Below, one piece after another: positions 5,967 to 59,094 of a stretch of DNA of 64,000 nt. A program made the position numbers and the translations under genes. Under the pieces are notes generated by a model. It worked only from the letters and a program-made list of their open reading frames with translations. It was not told where the DNA came from and ran no database searches. Position 1 is the first letter of the stretch; the number at the start of each line of letters is the position of its first letter. The DNA comes from an uncultured Christensenellaceae bacterium (GTDB lineage: Bacteria > Bacillota > Clostridia > Christensenellales > UBA3700), in contig OZ006985.1 of assembly GCA_963931165.1 (NCBI GenBank), positions 975,900 through 1,039,899 of the forward strand. The letters run 5' to 3'.

Positions 5967-6994
5967 GGATCATCGGTGGCAAATTGAGGGGCAGGAAGCT
6001 GATCTCGCCGTCGGGCAGAGAGGTCAGACCCACGTCCGATATGGCAAAGCAGGGCATTTTCAACGTGTTGCAGTTCGACATCGAAGGCAGCCGGTTCGTC
6101 GACCTGTTCAGCGGCAGCGGAGCGATCGGCATCGAGGCGCTCAGCCGCGGCGCGGCGGAAGTCGTCTTTTGCGACAACGGCAGAGAGGGGATCACGCTCA
6201 CCAACGCCAACCTCAAATCGCTCAAAGAACTGAACGGCGCGAACTATCGCCTTGTCGCGCGCGATTGGCGCGACTGTCTGCGTTCGCTGAAAGGCAAGTG
6301 GAACTATATCTTCTGCGACCCGCCGTACGGCAGCGTCGACATCGCCGAGATAGCGGCGGCGGTCGCGCGCGCCGACCTGCTCGAAGAGGACGGCTGTCTC
6401 ATCTTTGAACACGACAGCGACGAAAAGTGCGCCGTGCCCGACGGATTCGAGCTTGCAAAGAGCCGCAAATACGGCAGGATCACGGTCGATTACTTTGTCC
6501 GCGCCGCGAAGATATGCGCGCTCACCGGCAGCTTCGACCCCTTTACGACAGGGCATCGCATGCTCGCCGAAGAGGCGGCGCGGCGATACGGCAAGGTCGT
6601 GGTCGTCGTCGCGATCAACGAAGCAAAACAAGGGCTGTTTTCGCTCAAAGAGAGGGCGGAGATCGCAAAGCTGTCGACAGAGGACATGCCGGACGTCACC
6701 GTGGAGATATGCTCGGGCATGGTCTGGGAGTTCTGCAAGGAGCGCGGCATAAAGACGATAGTGCGCGGCTGGCGCGACGCGGACGATCTCGCGTATGAGC
6801 GCGATATGGCGGACTTCAACCGCGACCACGGAGTGGAGACGGTGCTGATCGAGGCAAAGGACAAGTTCGCGGACATACACTCGCACACGGTGCGCGAATT
6901 GCTCGAAAGAGGCGAAGCCATCGACGGATACGTCGTCCCGGCGGCGGCGCAAAAAATAAAGGACATATACGAACGGACGAGGAGGAAAGTTTGA
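5963..6994 (+). CDS. rsmD-coaD: Fusion protein: 16S rRNA (guanine966-N2)-methyltransferase RsmD + phosphopantetheine adenylyltransferase CoaD
   Basis: ATG 5963 overlaps the upstream stop (ATGA). The N-terminal half has RIIGGxxRGRKL...RPTSDxxKxxIFN...DLFSGSGAIGIEALSRGA...DPPY (RsmD). The C-terminal half has LTGSFDPFTTGH...TIVRGWR (CoaD). There is no stop and no in-frame ATG/GTG/TTG at the junction VDYFVRAAKICALTGSFDP. Confidence 0.8.
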   Translation: MRIIGGKLRGRKLISPSGREVRPTSDMAKQGIFNVLQFDIEGSRFVDLFSGSGAIGIEALSRGAAEVVFCDNGREGITLTNANLKSLKELNGANYRLVARDWRDCLRSLKGKWNYIFCDPPYGSVDIAEIAAAVARADLLEEDGCLIFEHDSDEKCAVPDGFELAKSRKYGRITVDYFVRAAKICALTGSFDPFTTGHRMLAEEAARRYGKVVVVVAINEAKQGLFSLKERAEIAKLSTEDMPDVTVEICSGMVWEFCKERGIKTIVRGWRDADDLAYERDMADFNRDHGVETVLIEAKDKFADIHSHTVRELLERGEAIDGYVVPAAAQKIKDIYERTRRKV

Positions 6995-6995
6995 T

Positions 6996-7469
6996 ATGGA
7001 TATCCAAATAGAGAGAGTTCTCGACAAGCTCGAAGAGGAGATCAGAGGCGGCAAAAAGGCGCTTTTCGGCAACCTGCGCGCGGTCGACGACACCAAGTGT
7101 CTCGAATATATCGCGAGCATCCGCAACCTCTTGCCCAGCTCGATCACCGAGGCGAGAGTCATCCTTCAAGACAAGGACAACATCATCGGCGACGCCCACG
7201 ACAAGGCGCGCGACATCCTCAACAAGGCGCACTCGGAGGCGGAAAGGCTGGTCGCCGAAGACCGCATCGTCGACGAGGCGAGACGCCGCGCGAACGCGAT
7301 CTTGGACGACGCCGAAAGACGTGCGTCGGAGTTGTCCGCGAGCTGTTACCACGGCATCATGGACATGTTCGACAGCGCGGAGACCGACCTGCGCAACGCC
7401 TTGCAAAACATCGACAAGGGCAGACAGGCGCTTTACGACATGACGTCGGGCAGCCGCGGCGACAGGTGA
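6996..7469 (+). CDS. Hypothetical coiled-coil protein (DivIVA / ATPase-subunit-like helical protein)
   Basis: 157-aa ORF starting 1 nt after the coaD stop. Charged heptad-like sequence (EAERLVAEDRIVDEARRRANAILDDAERRA). No specific family recognised. Confidence 0.5.
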   Translation: MDIQIERVLDKLEEEIRGGKKALFGNLRAVDDTKCLEYIASIRNLLPSSITEARVILQDKDNIIGDAHDKARDILNKAHSEAERLVAEDRIVDEARRRANAILDDAERRASELSASCYHGIMDMFDSAETDLRNALQNIDKGRQALYDMTSGSRGDR

Positions 7470-8474
7470 TCAAAGGACAAGCGAAACAAGACATGCGAGC
7501 GAGATCGTGATCGCGGCTTGCGTTGCCTTTGTCAACGCGAAAAAGCCGATACGTATCCCGCAAACCGAACAAAACGACAACGATTGGACGGCGATCGCGA
7601 CGCCGCCGAAAGACAGCATTCCCGCAAGATAGGGGAGTGCTGTCTTTGCTTCAAGCCCGATCTCGGACAGCAGCTTGCAGCCGCGCGTCAGTTCGACGGC
7701 GCCCGCGGCGAGCGAGTTTGCGACGCGAGGGTCTTGTCCGAGGGCGGAGAGCAGCTTTGCGAGCGGAGAGGCGATCGCGCCGAGTATCCCCGTCGAGATC
7801 AGCAGGTCGATCGCGAGCCCGAACACCGCGATATATCCGCCGACCAGCGCGACCGAGAGTATCGAGTCGGTCATCGCGGAGGCGAGCACGTTGTCAGTGC
7901 ACGGCGGCACGAACGCCGCGCGGCGCATTGAAGTCTTGCGGCGGCGGTAGAGCAGTCCGTTGAGGAGCGCGCCCGCGACATGACACGCCAAAAGAGCGTA
8001 TCCGAGGCGCGGACTGCCGAACATCGCCGTCCCGACCGTTCCGACGACGAACAGCGGACCCGACGTCGACGCAAACGAGGAGATGCAACGCGCGTCCGCG
8101 CCGTCTATGACGCCCGCCTTGTAGAGGTCGCCCAAAAGCCGCGCCCCGACCGGATAGCCGGAAAGCAAGCTCATCAGACAGACATATCCGCCTATCGGCG
8201 GCGCGTTGTACAGCAGCGCGACGGGGCGGCGGAACAGGTCGCCTATCGCGCGCGCCGCGCCCAGCGAAGTCAATAATTTTGTAAAGAAGAAATAGGGCAA
8301 AAGCGCGGGCAGTACGCTTTGGACGAACATCCCGAGCGCGGAGTGCACGCTCGCGATACATTGTTTGGGATCGACGGCGAGCGCGATCGTCAGCGCGCAT
8401 ATCAGCGCGTTGACCGCGACGAGTTTGGGGTTGGACGCCAGCGCGCGAAAAAACCGTGTTTTGACCACGGTCAA
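7470..8474 (-). CDS. ylbJ: Sporulation integral membrane protein YlbJ-like
   Basis: Polytopic membrane protein resembling B. subtilis YlbJ (VLPALLPYFFFTKLL..., SGYPVGARL). The start is uncertain: TTG 8474 or GTG 8468 are the only candidates between the upstream gene stop (8507) and the conserved N-terminus. The upstream Arg-rich part of the track ORF is rejected. Confidence 0.6.
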   Translation of the reverse strand: MTVVKTRFFRALASNPKLVAVNALICALTIALAVDPKQCIASVHSALGMFVQSVLPALLPYFFFTKLLTSLGAARAIGDLFRRPVALLYNAPPIGGYVCLMSLLSGYPVGARLLGDLYKAGVIDGADARCISSFASTSGPLFVVGTVGTAMFGSPRLGYALLACHVAGALLNGLLYRRRKTSMRRAAFVPPCTDNVLASAMTDSILSVALVGGYIAVFGLAIDLLISTGILGAIASPLAKLLSALGQDPRVANSLAAGAVELTRGCKLLSEIGLEAKTALPYLAGMLSFGGVAIAVQSLSFCSVCGIRIGFFALTKATQAAITISLACLVSLVL

Positions 8475-34229: not shown

Positions 34230-34308
34230 GATGTTACCTCCCGAAAGCGCGTTCAAACGCTTTACTTATTTGCAAAACTAATATATCATATTATTGACGC
34301 AGGTATCT

Positions 34309-34337: not shown

Positions 34338-34991
34338 ATGGATTTTTCGCAAATCGAGTTGTTTGACGGCATAAGCGCGGCGTCGTGTACGGACATGCTG
34401 GTGTGTTTCGGCGCGGAGTTCGATTCGTTCCGCACCGGCGAGGTCGTGTGCGACTATTCGGACGACCCCAAGCGGCGCGTGGGGATCATGCGCACGGGCA
34501 GGGCGTCGATGATCCGCATAGACGAGAGCGGCAACGAGACGCTGCTCGAAGAGGTCGAGGAGGGCGATATATTCGGCGAGGTGCTGTGTTTCGGCGACGG
34601 CGGCGACTATGTCAAACTCATATGCGACGAAGACTGCGACGTTGTCTTTCTCAAATACGATCAGATCACCAAGCGGTGCGAAAAGGCGTGCGAGCACCAC
34701 AGCCGCCTCGTCGCCAATCTGTTCGAGCTGATGGCAAAAAAGACGCTGTCGCTCGGCGAGAGGATACAATTGCTGTCGAGGCGCACGACGCGAGAGAAGC
34801 TGATGTACTATTTCCGTCTCGAGAGCGCGCGCAGGGGCGGCGAGTTCACGCTGCCGATGTCGCACACGCGGCTCGCCGAGTATCTGTGCGTCGACCGCAG
34901 TGCGATGGTCAGGGAATTGAAGCGGCTGACGGACGACGGCTTGGTGCGCGTCGACGGCAAGAAGATAAGGTTGACGCAAGCGGAATTTTGA
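34338..34991 (+). CDS. Crp/Fnr family transcriptional regulator
   Basis: ATG 34338. cNMP-binding-like beta-roll (GDIFGE) and C-terminal HTH (HTRLAEYLCVDRSAMVRELKRL). Cys pairs CDEDC and CEKAC lie between the domains. Confidence 0.85.
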   Translation: MDFSQIELFDGISAASCTDMLVCFGAEFDSFRTGEVVCDYSDDPKRRVGIMRTGRASMIRIDESGNETLLEEVEEGDIFGEVLCFGDGGDYVKLICDEDCDVVFLKYDQITKRCEKACEHHSRLVANLFELMAKKTLSLGERIQLLSRRTTREKLMYYFRLESARRGGEFTLPMSHTRLAEYLCVDRSAMVRELKRLTDDGLVRVDGKKIRLTQAEF

Positions 34992-42092: not shown

Positions 42093-42121
42093 ATTATATA
42101 TTATCCATAATATGCTGTCAA
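42093..42121 (-). promoter_or_regulatory. Promoter of the acyltransferase gene (TTGACA-N17-TATAAT on the minus strand)
   Basis: Exact consensus: -35 is the complement of 42116-42121 and -10 the complement of 42093-42098. Confidence 0.6.
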
Positions 42122-56254: not shown

Positions 56255-56506
56255 ATGACAGAATACACTTTTGACACACAATTGCTCATCGACGGAGAGG
56301 AACTCGACGCCGACGAGATCAAGGCGTACATCGAGACGCACATCAAGGGCGATTGCCTGCTCGTCGTCGGCGACGACGAGTTGATCAAGATCCACTACCA
56401 CACGGACACGCCGTGGAAGGTGCTGGAATATTGTTCCGATCTCGGCGACATATACGACGTCGTCGTCGAGAACATGGTGCGGCAGGAGAACGGGCTCAAA
56501 GGCTGA
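56255..56506 (+). CDS. 83-aa stand-alone domain resembling the C-terminal domain of DAK2-fusion protein YloV/FakA
   Basis: SD GGAGAGAG. GDCLLVVGDDELIKIHYHTDTPWKVLEYCSDLGDIYDVVVENMVRQ parallels the YloV C-terminus (GDSLxVV.D..xxKVHVHT..P....Y....G.L....I.NM..Q, from memory). Confidence 0.55.
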   Translation: MTEYTFDTQLLIDGEELDADEIKAYIETHIKGDCLLVVGDDELIKIHYHTDTPWKVLEYCSDLGDIYDVVVENMVRQENGLKG

Positions 56507-56632: not shown

Positions 56633-58111
56633 ATGCAGCAATTCGATTTATACAAGGACATCGCCGAGAGGACGGGCGGCGACATCTATATAGGAGTGGT
56701 CGGACCCGTGAGGACGGGCAAGTCGACCTTCATCAAGAAGTTTGCCGAACTTGCGCTCATCGCCAACATCGAGGACGAACATCGCCGCAAACGCGTCACG
56801 GACGAGCTGCCGCAATCGGCGGACGGAAAGGCGGTCATGACCACTCAGCCCAAGTTCGTCCCCGACGGCGGCGAGACGATCGATCTCGGCGACGGCAAAA
56901 AGGCGAACGTCAGGCTGATCGACTGCGTCGGATATATGATCCCGTCTGCGGCGTCGGCGGACGGCGACGGCAAGACGCGGATGGTCGATACGCCGTGGAG
57001 CGAAGAAAAGATGCCCTTTGACGAGGCGGCGGAGACGGGTACGCGCAAGGTGATCCGCGATCACTCGACGATCGGGATCTTGGTGACCAGCGACGGAAGC
57101 GTCACCGACGCGCCGCGCGCCGAATATGTCGACGCCGAACGCCGCGTGGCGGCGGAACTCGCCGCGATAGGCAAGCCGTACGTCATCGTGCTCAACACGC
57201 GTCACGAACGCGACGCCGAGACCAAAAAGCTCGCCGAGGCGATGCGCGGCGTCTACAACGTGCCTGTCATCGTCCAAAACGTCGCGCATATGGACAGAGA
57301 CGCGCTCGTCGCGATCATCGAGTGCGTGCTCGGCGCGTTCCCGATCGAATCGGTCGGAGCGAAGCTGCCCGATTGGCTGAGGGCGCTGCCCGCGGACGAT
57401 CCGATCATTGCCGACATCACTGCGCGCGTCGCCGGATATGCGGCAAAGGCGAACGTGATGGCGGATTACGGCGTCTTTTCGTCCATGTTCGACGACAGCG
57501 GCGACATAGAAAAGCTGTCGGGCATAGAGGCGGACTACGCAAAGGGAAGGATAGTGCTCGACGTGTGCCCCAAAAAGGACTTGTTCTACCGCGTGCTGTC
57601 GCGCCAATGCGGAGTGGACATAGGCGACGAATTCAAGCTGGTCGGTGCGATCCGCGAGATGAGCGAGGCGAAGCGCCGTTACGACAAGCTCGCCGCGGCG
57701 ATCGAGGACGCTGACAACTACGGCTACGGCGTGACCGCGCCCGAACTCGAAGATATGGAGTTTGAGCGTCCCGAGATCATCCACAAGGGCTCGCGGTTCG
57801 GGATCAAGATGAGGGCGAGCGCGCCGTCATACCACATTCTCAAAGTCGACGTCGAGACAGAGGTCAATCCCATTCTCGGCACCGAGGCGCAGGACGAGGA
57901 CATGGTCAAGGATTGGCTGGACACGTTCGGGGACGACACCGAGGGGATATGGCAGACCAACATGCTCGGCAAGTCGCTCAATGTGCTTGCGCGCGACGGC
58001 TTGACCGGCAAGCTGTCGTCGATGCCCGAAGAGGCGAGAGCGAAGCTGCGCAAGACAGTGACGCGAATCGTCAACGAAGGCAGGGGCGGAGTGCTGTGCA
58101 TACTGCTGTGA
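56633..58111 (+). CDS. spoIVA: Stage IV sporulation protein A (spore coat basement-layer ATPase)
   Basis: N-terminus DIYIGVVGPVRTGKSTFIKKF (Walker A) and full 492-aa colinearity with SpoIVA. Confidence 0.95.
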   Translation: MQQFDLYKDIAERTGGDIYIGVVGPVRTGKSTFIKKFAELALIANIEDEHRRKRVTDELPQSADGKAVMTTQPKFVPDGGETIDLGDGKKANVRLIDCVGYMIPSAASADGDGKTRMVDTPWSEEKMPFDEAAETGTRKVIRDHSTIGILVTSDGSVTDAPRAEYVDAERRVAAELAAIGKPYVIVLNTRHERDAETKKLAEAMRGVYNVPVIVQNVAHMDRDALVAIIECVLGAFPIESVGAKLPDWLRALPADDPIIADITARVAGYAAKANVMADYGVFSSMFDDSGDIEKLSGIEADYAKGRIVLDVCPKKDLFYRVLSRQCGVDIGDEFKLVGAIREMSEAKRRYDKLAAAIEDADNYGYGVTAPELEDMEFERPEIIHKGSRFGIKMRASAPSYHILKVDVETEVNPILGTEAQDEDMVKDWLDTFGDDTEGIWQTNMLGKSLNVLARDGLTGKLSSMPEEARAKLRKTVTRIVNEGRGGVLCILL

Positions 58112-58132: not shown

Positions 58133-58168
58133 AAATAATTGATACTAATCGAAAATAATTGATACTAA
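58133..58168. repeat. Tandem direct repeat AAATAATTGATACTAA x2 with a 20-nt period
   Basis: Exact 16-mers at 58133-58148 and 58153-58168. They form an AT-rich island between the spoIVA stop and its terminator. Confidence 0.85.
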
Positions 58169-58172
58169 CAAT

Positions 58173-58203
58173 GCGGCGGAGCGATAAACTCCGCCGCGTT
58201 TTG
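58173..58203 (+). terminator. Rho-independent terminator after spoIVA
   Basis: Stem GCGGCGGAG/CTCCGCCGC followed by GTTTTG. Confidence 0.7.
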
Positions 58204-58292
58204 CGCGCGTAACACAACGCTTAACGCGCGCATATCATGATATCGGGCGCGGGTTACATCATCGTCCTTTGGGACAAAGAGGAGGTGAGGTG

Positions 58293-58427
58293 ATGTATTT
58301 CGGTTACAATTTCGAGGCATATATGCTGCCGTGCGGCAGTCCGCCGTGCTGCAACATTTCGACCCGCGCCTGTAATTGCGCGGGAGTGTTTCCCTATTGG
58401 TTCAACCCCTGCGGTTGGTATGTTTGA
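58293..58427 (+). CDS. 44-aa cysteine- and aromatic-rich micro-protein (not in the ORF track)
   Basis: Strong SD AAAGAGGAGGTGAGG precedes the ATG. Translation is MYFGYNFEAYMLPCGSPPCCNISTRACNCAGVFPYWFNPCGWYV (6 Cys, 11 aromatic residues). The stop lies 3 nt before a strong hairpin. Confidence 0.55.
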   Translation: MYFGYNFEAYMLPCGSPPCCNISTRACNCAGVFPYWFNPCGWYV

Positions 58428-58430
58428 ACA

Positions 58431-58462
58431 AAGAAGGACGCGCCGTCTGACGCGTCCTTCTT
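58431..58462. terminator. Bidirectional terminator shared by the two convergent micro-protein genes
   Basis: Perfect 12-bp stem AAGAAGGACGCG/CGCGTCCTTCTT with an 8-nt loop. Confidence 0.75.
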
Positions 58463-58636
58463 TCAATTGCTTTGTCCCGGGCAGACGCTCTGACCTATGT
58501 CGGCTGCGCGGCAGCCGAGACAGTTGGCGAACGACAGACAGCAGAAGATCAGCGACAGCGGATCGCACGAGTTGGTCTGACCGCCGCCGTTGTTGTTCAT
58601 CGCGAGCAGCAGCAACAACAGAAAGTTGGAATTCAT
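58463..58636 (-). CDS. 57-aa cysteine-rich micro-protein with a hydrophobic N-terminal segment
   Basis: Internal ATG 58636 lies 5 nt after GGAGG. Translation is MNSNFLLLLLLAMNNNGGGQTNSCDPLSLIFCCLSFANCLGCRAADIGQSVCPGQSN (6 Cys). The stop abuts the shared hairpin. Confidence 0.5.
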   Translation of the reverse strand: MNSNFLLLLLLAMNNNGGGQTNSCDPLSLIFCCLSFANCLGCRAADIGQSVCPGQSN

Positions 58637-58743
58637 CTTATCCTCCAAAATAGCTAAATTTCGACGCAACACGCGGCGAAGCGCGGCATTGATCGCTATA
58701 TAATATGCTCATATGACGGCGCGTATGCGCCAAGGAGCAGACC

Positions 58744-59094
58744 ATGACAATGTATCGAGAATGTTTGACCGTGGACGAGAGGGGCGAGCGCAGCATTTTG
58801 GAGAATATGCCCCCGAGCCGCTCTCTTTGCGGCATAGCGCGATTTTTTGCGGTATTTTCGGACGAGACGCGGCTCAAGATCTTGTCCGCGCTGTCGATGA
58901 AAGATCTCTGCGTTGCAGACCTTTGCTTTTTTCTGGCTAGCGAGCAGAGCACGGTGTCCCATCAGCTGCGCTTGCTCAAAGACGCAGGCATCGTCGCGTC
59001 GCGCAAAGCGGGGCGGCTGACGCTCTACACGATCGTCGACCCGTACGTTTCCGAGGTGATGCTGACCGGGGCGAGGCGGTTGCGGCGCAGATAG
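58744..59094 (+). CDS. ArsR/SmtB family transcriptional regulator
   Basis: SD AAGGAG. Winged-helix pattern FAVFSDETRLKILSAL...DLCVADL...STVSHQLRLLKDAGIV. Confidence 0.85.
   Translation: MTMYRECLTVDERGERSILENMPPSRSLCGIARFFAVFSDETRLKILSALSMKDLCVADLCFFLASEQSTVSHQLRLLKDAGIVASRKAGRLTLYTIVDPYVSEVMLTGARRLRRR

Follow-up and report, generated by a model that had tools for sequence, protein, structure and literature searches.

The CotY and CotZ proteins of the Bacillus subtilis crust, like ExsY and CotY of the exosporium in the Bacillus cereus group, are Cys-rich products of late mother-cell gene expression that self-assemble into outer spore layers cross-linked by disulfides. SpoVM and CmpA, also of B. 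subtilis, are small mother-cell proteins that act with SpoIVA, and in Synechococcus the ArsR/SmtB repressor gene smtB lies divergent from smtA, the gene of a 56-residue Cys-rich metallothionein. Here we describe two convergent micro-protein genes next to spoIVA that recall each of these systems in part. They lie in a 64,000-nucleotide stretch of DNA (GenBank assembly GCA_963931165.1, contig OZ006985.1, positions 975,900 to 1,039,899 of the forward strand; hereafter the window). A further point of comparison is provided by CdeC and CdeM of Clostridioides difficile (405 and 161 amino acids), which are sigma-K-driven and monocistronic, with a Cys content of about 9%, NPC and CNCC motifs, no known domain and a restricted taxonomic range, CdeM being unique to C. 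difficile (PMC6101409).

The window comes from a Candidatus (Ca.) Ornithoclostridium genome (Christensenellales; chicken-gut metagenome-assembled genomes, MAGs). In it, spoIVA, the gene of the coat basement-layer ATPase (56633..58111, plus strand; TIGR02836 at 582.8 bits and three of three Pfam SpoIVA domains), is followed by a 44-residue open reading frame (ORF) on the same strand (58293..58427, the plus ORF). A 57-residue ORF (58463..58636, minus strand, the minus ORF) converges on it, and an ArsR/SmtB-family helix-turn-helix (HTH) regulator gene (58744..59094, plus strand; arsR) diverges from the minus ORF. The explanation that we favor, tentatively and with slightly less than even confidence, is that these are two independent mother-cell sporulation genes, not homologous to one another, whose products probably belong to the proteinaceous spore envelope. 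Spore surface layers decide the persistence and transmission of gut anaerobes, and their components are known for few cultured model species; for the mostly uncultured Christensenellales almost nothing is known.

Coding status and relationship of the two micro-proteins

The plus ORF encodes a Cys- and aromatic-rich micro-protein, MYFGYNFEAYMLPCGSPPCCNISTRACNCAGVFPYWFNPCGWYV, behind the Shine-Dalgarno sequence AGGAGG (58280..58285, plus strand), which lies 7 nt 5' of the ATG with the same spacing in all relatives. The minus ORF, whose length is counted from its ATG, encodes a hydrophobic Cys-containing micro-protein behind GGAGGA (58641..58646, minus strand), and a GGAGG-type site is present in all lineages. 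These positions, lengths and strong Shine-Dalgarno sites had been given by an initial annotation made from the sequence, and we verified them there. The plus ORF is intact in all Ornithoclostridium loci, the minus ORF also has distant relatives, and in every related locus both frames, their Shine-Dalgarno sites and their start positions are intact; in L010 the ATG of the plus ORF is replaced by GTG with the Shine-Dalgarno spacing unchanged. The ratio of nonsynonymous to synonymous substitution rates (dN/dS, Nei-Gojobori method) ranges from 0.02 to 0.22 in the minus ORF and from 0.18 to 0.35 in the plus ORF, as compared with 0.05-0.15 for arsR and 0.03-0.16 for spoIVA. Because the frames, Shine-Dalgarno sites and starts are kept and dN/dS is well below 1, both ORFs are real, selected protein-coding genes. 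Indeed, both are called as genes by gene callers in other assemblies.

That the two might instead be chance open frames in a non-coding spacer is suggested by their shortness and by the lack of a match to any known family. Chance frames, however, would not be expected to persist with their starts and Shine-Dalgarno sites at 59-77% protein identity, to accept indels exclusively in multiples of three, to show dN/dS far below 1 or to have homologs that keep a core motif down to 40% identity. The conservation and dN/dS results thus refute this reading, to which we give practically no credence. None of the observations that the initial annotation had named as counting against it, such as frames lost in relatives or a region non-coding in close strains, was made.

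The initial annotation had further proposed that the two peptides form a matched pair, with one Cys framework and a shared disulfide or metal-binding fold. Each peptide does contain six cysteines with the spacings it described, C-x4-CC-x6-C-x-C-x10-C in the plus peptide and C-x7-CC-x5-C-x2-C-x9-C in the minus peptide. The common count of six therefore stands, but the common framework does not: none of the gaps has the same length in the two peptides, and each family, taken with its distant relatives, keeps just four of the six cysteines, a different set in each, so that the six-Cys framework is not family-wide in either. Profile-profile alignment with hhalign detected no homology between the families (probability 0.8%, 7 aligned columns). 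Their distributions are also unlike, as the minus family occurs in several other lineages (one of them Ca. Caccalectryoclostridium) that have no plus-ORF relative at the locus, and so are their evolutionary rates. In the comparison with L010, SpoIVA and the minus peptide are each 98% identical and the plus peptide about 72%; dN is 0.29 for the plus ORF and 0.011 for spoIVA, a difference of about 25-fold. Judged on these three grounds the peptides are not a homologous pair and would represent two unrelated new families, with no support for a shared fold. A similar number of cysteines does not imply common ancestry.

Between the two ORFs lies a bidirectional terminator-like hairpin (58430..58463) with an 8-nt loop, described earlier as a perfect 12-bp hairpin shared by both genes. 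The hairpin is stable on both strands (-21.6 kcal/mol plus, -26.0 kcal/mol minus; z-scores -4.8 and -6.4; 0 of 200 shuffles fold equally well), and its pairs number 13. In L001 and L012 (Ca. O. excrementipullorum) the micro-ORFs are about 400 bp apart, as against 35 bp in the window, and the terminator is not common to them; the single hairpin is thus compact packing only. At L001 6178-6578 and in L012 the plus ORF has its own terminator hairpin, and it carries eight cysteines.

The convergent arrangement bears on a further possibility, namely that the minus ORF encodes a type I toxin-like, membrane-active peptide whose antisense regulator is the convergent plus transcript, acting via the shared terminator. 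The minus peptide is small and hydrophobic, and the transcripts would overlap at the hairpin. Yet the minus ORF has no plus-ORF relative in most lineages, the ORFs are about 400 bp apart in L001 and L012, purifying selection acts on the protein sequence of the plus ORF itself, and pairing with an ArsR gene is no feature of toxin-antitoxin systems; we consider this reading exceedingly improbable. A candidate RNA gene in the micro-ORF region was also rejected, since the STnc320 match to the hairpin, at 25.6 bits, falls below the gathering score of 50. Other Rfam matches to this region at E<=1 are chance matches below threshold.

The plus-ORF family and its control region

Aromatic residues (Tyr, Phe or Trp) account for 11 of the 44 positions of the plus peptide (25%), the quarter that the initial annotation had reported. 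The gene is found in all Ornithoclostridium loci at 59-100% peptide identity, and the gene order spoIVA, plus ORF, minus ORF, arsR, uvrC is kept in at least five species-level lineages. Conserved among the Ornithoclostridium peptides are the six cysteines, the segment LPC.SP.CCN.STR.C.C and the C-terminal PY..NPCGWY, with a variable aromatic N-terminus. In a sister lineage (L021, L030, L031), ORFs of 83-89 amino acids with 16-19 cysteines occupy the same slot after spoIVA in the same orientation. These long relatives have in addition an N-terminus rich in Cys, Gly and Asn, a short run of hydrophobic residues and a tail of the CGNCGC type. A hidden Markov model of the plus ORF scored the L021 relative at only 3.9 bits, a result of composition bias. 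We nevertheless accept the homology because of the exact PYYVNPCGWY, the same slot and orientation, and the bridging form in L030, which contains both CCNNSTRSCNC and PYYVNPCGWY and so links the short and long forms. The family core reads C..S...C......C......PYxxNPCGWY, of which four cysteines and PYxxNPCGWY are invariant.

The plus gene was found only in these two neighboring lineages, and the loci of more distant lineages yielded no relative. Exhaustive and profile searches with both peptides returned micro-protein relatives only. Pfam and NCBIfam scans of both peptides (Pfam-A, E<=10), the long plus relatives and P0020 identified no family; the long relatives gave only chance matches in Pfam at E<=1. 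The CotZ model (Spore-coat_CotZ) was matched by neither peptide (Pfam-A, E<=10) nor by the long relatives (E<=1). We discounted as spurious a metagenome match in L018 that covers 21 residues at 52% identity and includes only a single cysteine. In Ca. O. faecigallinarum (L010 6213-6341, L015 5001-5120) the plus ORF has a GTG start and the N-terminal nine residues read MYLYSQYGY in place of MYFGYNFEAY, a local burst of change in the plus ORF, while SpoIVA is 98% identical.

Upstream of the plus ORF is a candidate sigma-K-type promoter, AC-N17-CATATCATG (58212..58239, plus strand), with conserved -35 and -10 elements. It follows the published sigma-K rule of a -35 AC combined with the shared CATA -10 (PMC3789822). 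The pattern ACN17CATANNNTR has this one match in the window on either strand, and AC-N17-CATAnnnT[AG] precedes members of the plus family in 8 of 9 lineages, with unrelated spacer sequences. The plus gene has its own Shine-Dalgarno site and terminator. Further 5', just 3' of the spoIVA stop, lies a tandem AT-rich element consisting of two copies of AATAATTGATACTA 20 bp apart (58134..58167, plus strand). With up to two mismatches allowed, these are the only copies in the window (0.12 expected). Every Ornithoclostridium locus keeps the element, and the long relatives in L021, L030 and L031 are preceded by a similar repeat, AATAATTGATAATA. The element could be the binding site for a regulator of the plus-ORF promoter.

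Several lines of evidence suggest that the plus peptide has a role in a spore layer: the candidate sigma-K-type promoter, the slot after spoIVA, the long Cys/Gly-rich relatives, fast evolution and a narrow range. We infer that it is a fast-evolving late mother-cell spore-surface protein of the CdeC/CdeM kind, whose transcription would depend on sigma-K. For the plus ORF, then, the spore-layer role that the initial annotation had proposed for both genes from their nearness to spoIVA is the best reading; for the minus ORF the conserved neighbor is the ArsR-type gene and not spoIVA.

The minus-ORF family and its ArsR-type partner

An exhaustive HMMER search followed by a profile search recovered minus-ORF relatives of 53-71 amino acids down to 40% identity, among them one in Ca. 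Caccalectryoclostridium that is annotated only as a hypothetical protein. The family core, PN[SC]CDPLSL..CC[LM].F..C[LV]G, stands behind a Leu-rich N-terminus and an N/G/C-rich linker. Of the six cysteines, the family keeps those at 24, 33, 39 and 52; at the first position of the CC pair and at position 42 several members have another residue. One helix at residues 3-14 and a second at 26-47 are predicted by AlphaFold with low confidence. A match of the HMMER search to P0011, a 1951-residue repeat protein, was regarded as spurious. P0003 (ENA contig, 78 amino acids) is a variant in which a frameshift has altered the C-terminus: Cys52 is missing and the frame continues across the terminator region, which may reflect a misassembly or a natural allele resembling a pseudogene. 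On inspection we rejected a lipoprotein or signal peptide, because the N-terminus has no basic region and Cys24 is not preceded by a lipobox.

At least four genomic contexts, of which three lack spoIVA, place an ArsR-type gene head-to-head with the minus ORF. In L019/L020, L024-L027 and L032/L033 the pair is flanked on its other side by a DUF5685/DnaJ-TPR/trpS cluster and not by spoIVA, in L022/L023 an amylase gene lies between arsR and uvrC, and in L028/L029 neither uvrC nor spoIVA is beside the pair. Since the pairing is kept with or without spoIVA or uvrC nearby, the conserved unit is the ArsR gene together with the minus micro-protein, and the adjacency to spoIVA is lineage-specific. In L019, L022, L024 and L032 (about 6200-8400) the module adjoins a conserved gene cluster that comprises a hypothetical protein (183-251 amino acids), a DnaJ-domain/TPR protein, DUF5685 and trpS.

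By its profile scores (NF033788 at 77.6 bits, cutoff 55; PF01022 at 53.4 bits, cutoff 22) the regulator can be regarded as a bona fide member of the ArsR/SmtB family, and the closest solved structure is SmtB (1r1t, E 5e-14). It lacks the alpha-5 His zinc ligands of SmtB, with DHH aligned to DPY and His to Tyr. An alpha-3 CVxD cysteine is kept everywhere, and the Ornithoclostridium regulator has two further cysteines of the kind seen in alpha-3N sites, another in alpha-3 and one at the N-terminus. These extra cysteines are lost in L021, L024 and L028; metal sensing is thus not a family-wide property, and we found no complete, conserved metal-sensing site, alpha-5 or alpha-3/alpha-3N, in the regulator family.

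This pairing is the basis of the main rival explanation for the minus ORF: that it is a stress-response micro-protein in an smtB-smtA-like module unrelated to sporulation, with its adjacency to spoIVA accidental, whereas the plus ORF could still be a coat protein. The repressor would sense a thiophilic metal, a metalloid or a thiol/redox signal and derepress a micro-protein that buffers stress at the membrane. Consistent with this, of all context features only the divergent ArsR pairing is conserved in every lineage, the gene of the regulator's closest solved relative is divergent from the small Cys-rich smtA, the alpha-3 cysteine persists (with the two additional ones in Ornithoclostridium), and the minus peptide has four family-wide cysteines. 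The absent alpha-5 His ligands and the loss of the extra cysteines in three lineages argue the other way. The minus peptide, moreover, has no match to the Pfam metallothionein model and is hydrophobic with a Leu run, unlike metallothioneins, and no efflux pump or reductase gene ever adjoins the pair in the contexts seen.

The control region between the two genes is relevant to both explanations. On the minus-ORF strand it contains a candidate sigma-E-type promoter, GCATACG-N14-CATATTATA (58699..58728), whose -10 and -35 motifs are conserved in part. The pattern ATA-N16-CATANNNT has two matches in the window, one of which is this candidate (0.22 expected). A -10 block CATATT[AG]TA precedes the minus ORF in 13 of the 13 loci examined, and a -35 [GT]CATAxx at N14 is found in Ornithoclostridium and in the L021/L030/L031 lineages, with near matches in L019, L022 and L028. 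The upstream region of spoIVA served as an internal sigma-E-type control: the same GCATAww -35 is present in the same genomes, and in the L021 and L031 lineages it is followed by a clean N14-CATAGTTTA -10. With the sigma-K-type candidate upstream of the plus ORF, the sigma-E/sigma-K element scan suggested in the initial annotation has thus returned candidate motifs for both genes. The octamer CATATTAT has been described as 'a canonical -10 box for mother cell sigma factors' (PMC3789822). We rejected it as a specific sporulation marker because two other copies in the window lie in ordinary intergenic promoters. One (42107-42114, minus strand) is within the spacer of a sigma-A promoter, TTGACA-17-TATAAT, 5' of an acyltransferase-like ORF (42028-41042); the other (34287-34294, plus strand) is intergenic, 5' of an unannotated open frame with an ATG at 34339.

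Overlapping the candidate promoter is an invariant 23-nt block, TCGCTATATAATATGCTCATATG (58693..58715, both strands), identical in all five aligned Ornithoclostridium loci while the flanks have diverged. It reads TATAAT, a sigma-A-type -10, on the arsR strand (TA[TC]AAT across lineages) and CATATTATA on the minus-ORF strand, and it includes a short palindrome, ATATG-CT-CATAT. The block would be a promoter, an operator or both, and it may also serve ArsR as its operator. Between it and the arsR Shine-Dalgarno site is a GC-rich palindrome, GGCGCGTATGCGCC (58718-58731), which overlaps the proposed sigma-E-like -35 of the minus ORF. It is kept with a different sequence in relatives (GCGCATATGCGC in L011, GGCGCGAATACGCGCC in L006), which suggests an operator or a hairpin in the 5' untranslated region of arsR. 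For the stress explanation, the sigma-A TATAAT on the arsR strand is a point in favor, but a mother-cell promoter would be the better match for the CAT that extends the -10 block and for the ATA-type -35. On balance we regard a stress module as unlikely, though it deserves to be taken seriously. We prefer for the minus ORF the mother-cell reading, under which its transcription would depend on sigma-E and be controlled by ArsR.

The ArsR partner also has a weak similarity to SdpR (42 bits, cutoff 100), which brings up the possibility that one or both peptides are exported or modified, as a bacteriocin, a precursor of a ribosomally synthesized and post-translationally modified peptide (RiPP), a pheromone or an SdpC/SdpR-like cannibalism toxin, with maturation and export genes located elsewhere. 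The initial annotation had kept a secreted or RiPP-like role as an alternative. Both peptides are small and Cys-rich, the plus ORF evolves fast, and the minus peptide has an N-terminal hydrophobic run followed by a Gly-rich segment. That N-terminus, however, lacks positive charge and a lipobox and is not a typical signal peptide, and the minus ORF is highly conserved over its whole length rather than in a core only. No modifying enzyme or transporter gene adjoins the micro-ORFs in the window, and in at least four contexts we found no radical-SAM or lanthionine enzyme, peptidase-ABC exporter or immunity gene. Neither SCIFF nor any other RiPP-precursor NCBIfam model was matched (E<=10), and scans with both families found no relative on viral contigs. 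Since maturases and exporters are missing from the contexts examined, the families are not on viral contigs and both ORFs are under purifying selection, the RiPP or bacteriocin, toxin-antitoxin and chance-ORF readings are all unlikely, and for an exported or modified peptide we consider the case very improbable.

Proposed roles and comparison with known systems

The remaining features of the locus are as follows. A GC-rich terminator-like hairpin lies 3' of spoIVA (58173..58197, plus strand; a 10-pair stem with 8 GC pairs) and is conserved in L002 and L003. uvrC is also among the neighbors of the micro-ORF pair in the window. Just upstream of spoIVA, after an Fe-hydrogenase-like gene, is an 83-residue ORF with a FakA-like middle domain (56255-56506), for which all relatives have a gene call; it lies outside the micro-protein finding. 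Rfam gave no match over the whole window at gathering thresholds, and the window contains no tRNAs.

Our favored explanation, two independent mother-cell genes, can be put as follows. The plus ORF would be a late gene transcribed from its sigma-K-type promoter, and its product would be deposited on the outer coat or exosporium and cross-linked there via its cysteines, possibly also its tyrosines, as described for CdeC/CdeM and CotY/CotZ. The minus ORF, in a fixed head-to-head module with its ArsR/SmtB-type repressor gene, would encode a hydrophobic micro-protein of two helices that is older, evolves slowly and has four cysteines kept throughout its family. The ArsR protein would bind the common conserved control block and thereby gate transcription of the micro-protein from a sigma-E-like mother-cell promoter.

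Several observations weigh against this explanation. The promoter assignments for both ORFs rest on short motifs, the CATATTAT octamer recurs in two ordinary promoters of the window, and the sigma-E-like -35 is weak or absent in L024 and L032. The conserved block could instead be the sigma-A -10 of arsR or its operator, and among the ten intergenic regions searched no inverted repeat fitting an ArsR operator is common to the lineages. Sporulation genes are missing from the vicinity of the minus ORF in three of the four contexts. Neither family received a confident fold from AlphaFold (predicted local distance difference test, pLDDT, 45 for the plus and 58 for the minus family), and the organisms that carry both genes are uncultured MAGs.

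A more specific version, which we think improbable, is that ArsR and the minus micro-protein form a previously unrecognized developmental checkpoint module of the Christensenellales. Here the sigma-E-type mother-cell promoter would be gated by an ArsR/SmtB-like sensor of thiols or metals, and the hydrophobic Cys micro-protein would insert at the forespore surface near the SpoIVA basement layer, with its synthesis tied to the mother cell's redox or metal state. The plus peptide would be a genus-specific cross-linker of the outer layer.

Both micro-proteins are concrete targets for small-protein-aware spore proteomics. The plus family is a candidate building block of the outer layer and, being very small, would show how short such proteins can be. 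Layouts that combine an ArsR/SmtB-type regulator with a micro-protein are largely missed by annotation pipelines or called 'hypothetical'.

Among the known systems, smtB-smtA resembles the minus side of the locus in gene layout only: an SmtB-like HTH gene is head-to-head with a Cys-rich ORF of about 57 residues across a control region of about 100 bp. The minus peptide, however, has no match to PF02069 (Pfam, E<=10), the bacterial metallothionein family with about nine cysteines and His ligands; it has four to six cysteines, no His and a Leu-rich hydrophobic N-terminus. The regulator, too, is without the alpha-5 zinc site, and its candidate promoter resembles the mother-cell type more than the vegetative. 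Like SpoVM and CmpA, which are helical micro-proteins of fewer than 60 residues made in the mother cell, the minus peptide is that small, has predicted helices and would be made in the mother cell, and the minus ORF adjoins spoIVA in the window. SpoVM and CmpA share no sequence similarity with the minus peptide, though, and are not Cys-rich, and the adjacency of the minus ORF to spoIVA is not conserved.

For the plus ORF, the CotY/CotZ proteins are folded, about 150-160 residues long and form ordered arrays, whereas the peptides here are far smaller and have no confident fold. The other comparison is with CdeC and CdeM. The plus ORF would be monocistronic, with a candidate sigma-K-type promoter, has no recognizable domain and has a very narrow taxonomic range. 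Its Cys content is 14% (6 of 44 residues), and about 19-21% in the long relatives, as compared with about 9% in CdeC and CdeM. Low-complexity motifs are found on both sides, with NPC, CNC/CNCC and N/G runs ending in C, to which the plus relatives add CGNCGC. The plus family differs in its size (44-89 residues) and in its own signature, PYxxNPCGWY, and the localization and function demonstrated for CdeC and CdeM are for the plus ORF proposed by analogy. In every testable respect save size and sequence the plus ORF is like CdeC and CdeM, a likeness by description. Both families described here are themselves undescribed, named 'hypothetical protein' at most and matched by no curated model. Familiar kinds of system stand nearest to them, namely Cys-rich proteins of the spore surface and a regulator whose target is small, Cys-rich and divergent; the most original element is the ArsR/micro-protein module with its mother-cell-type promoter.

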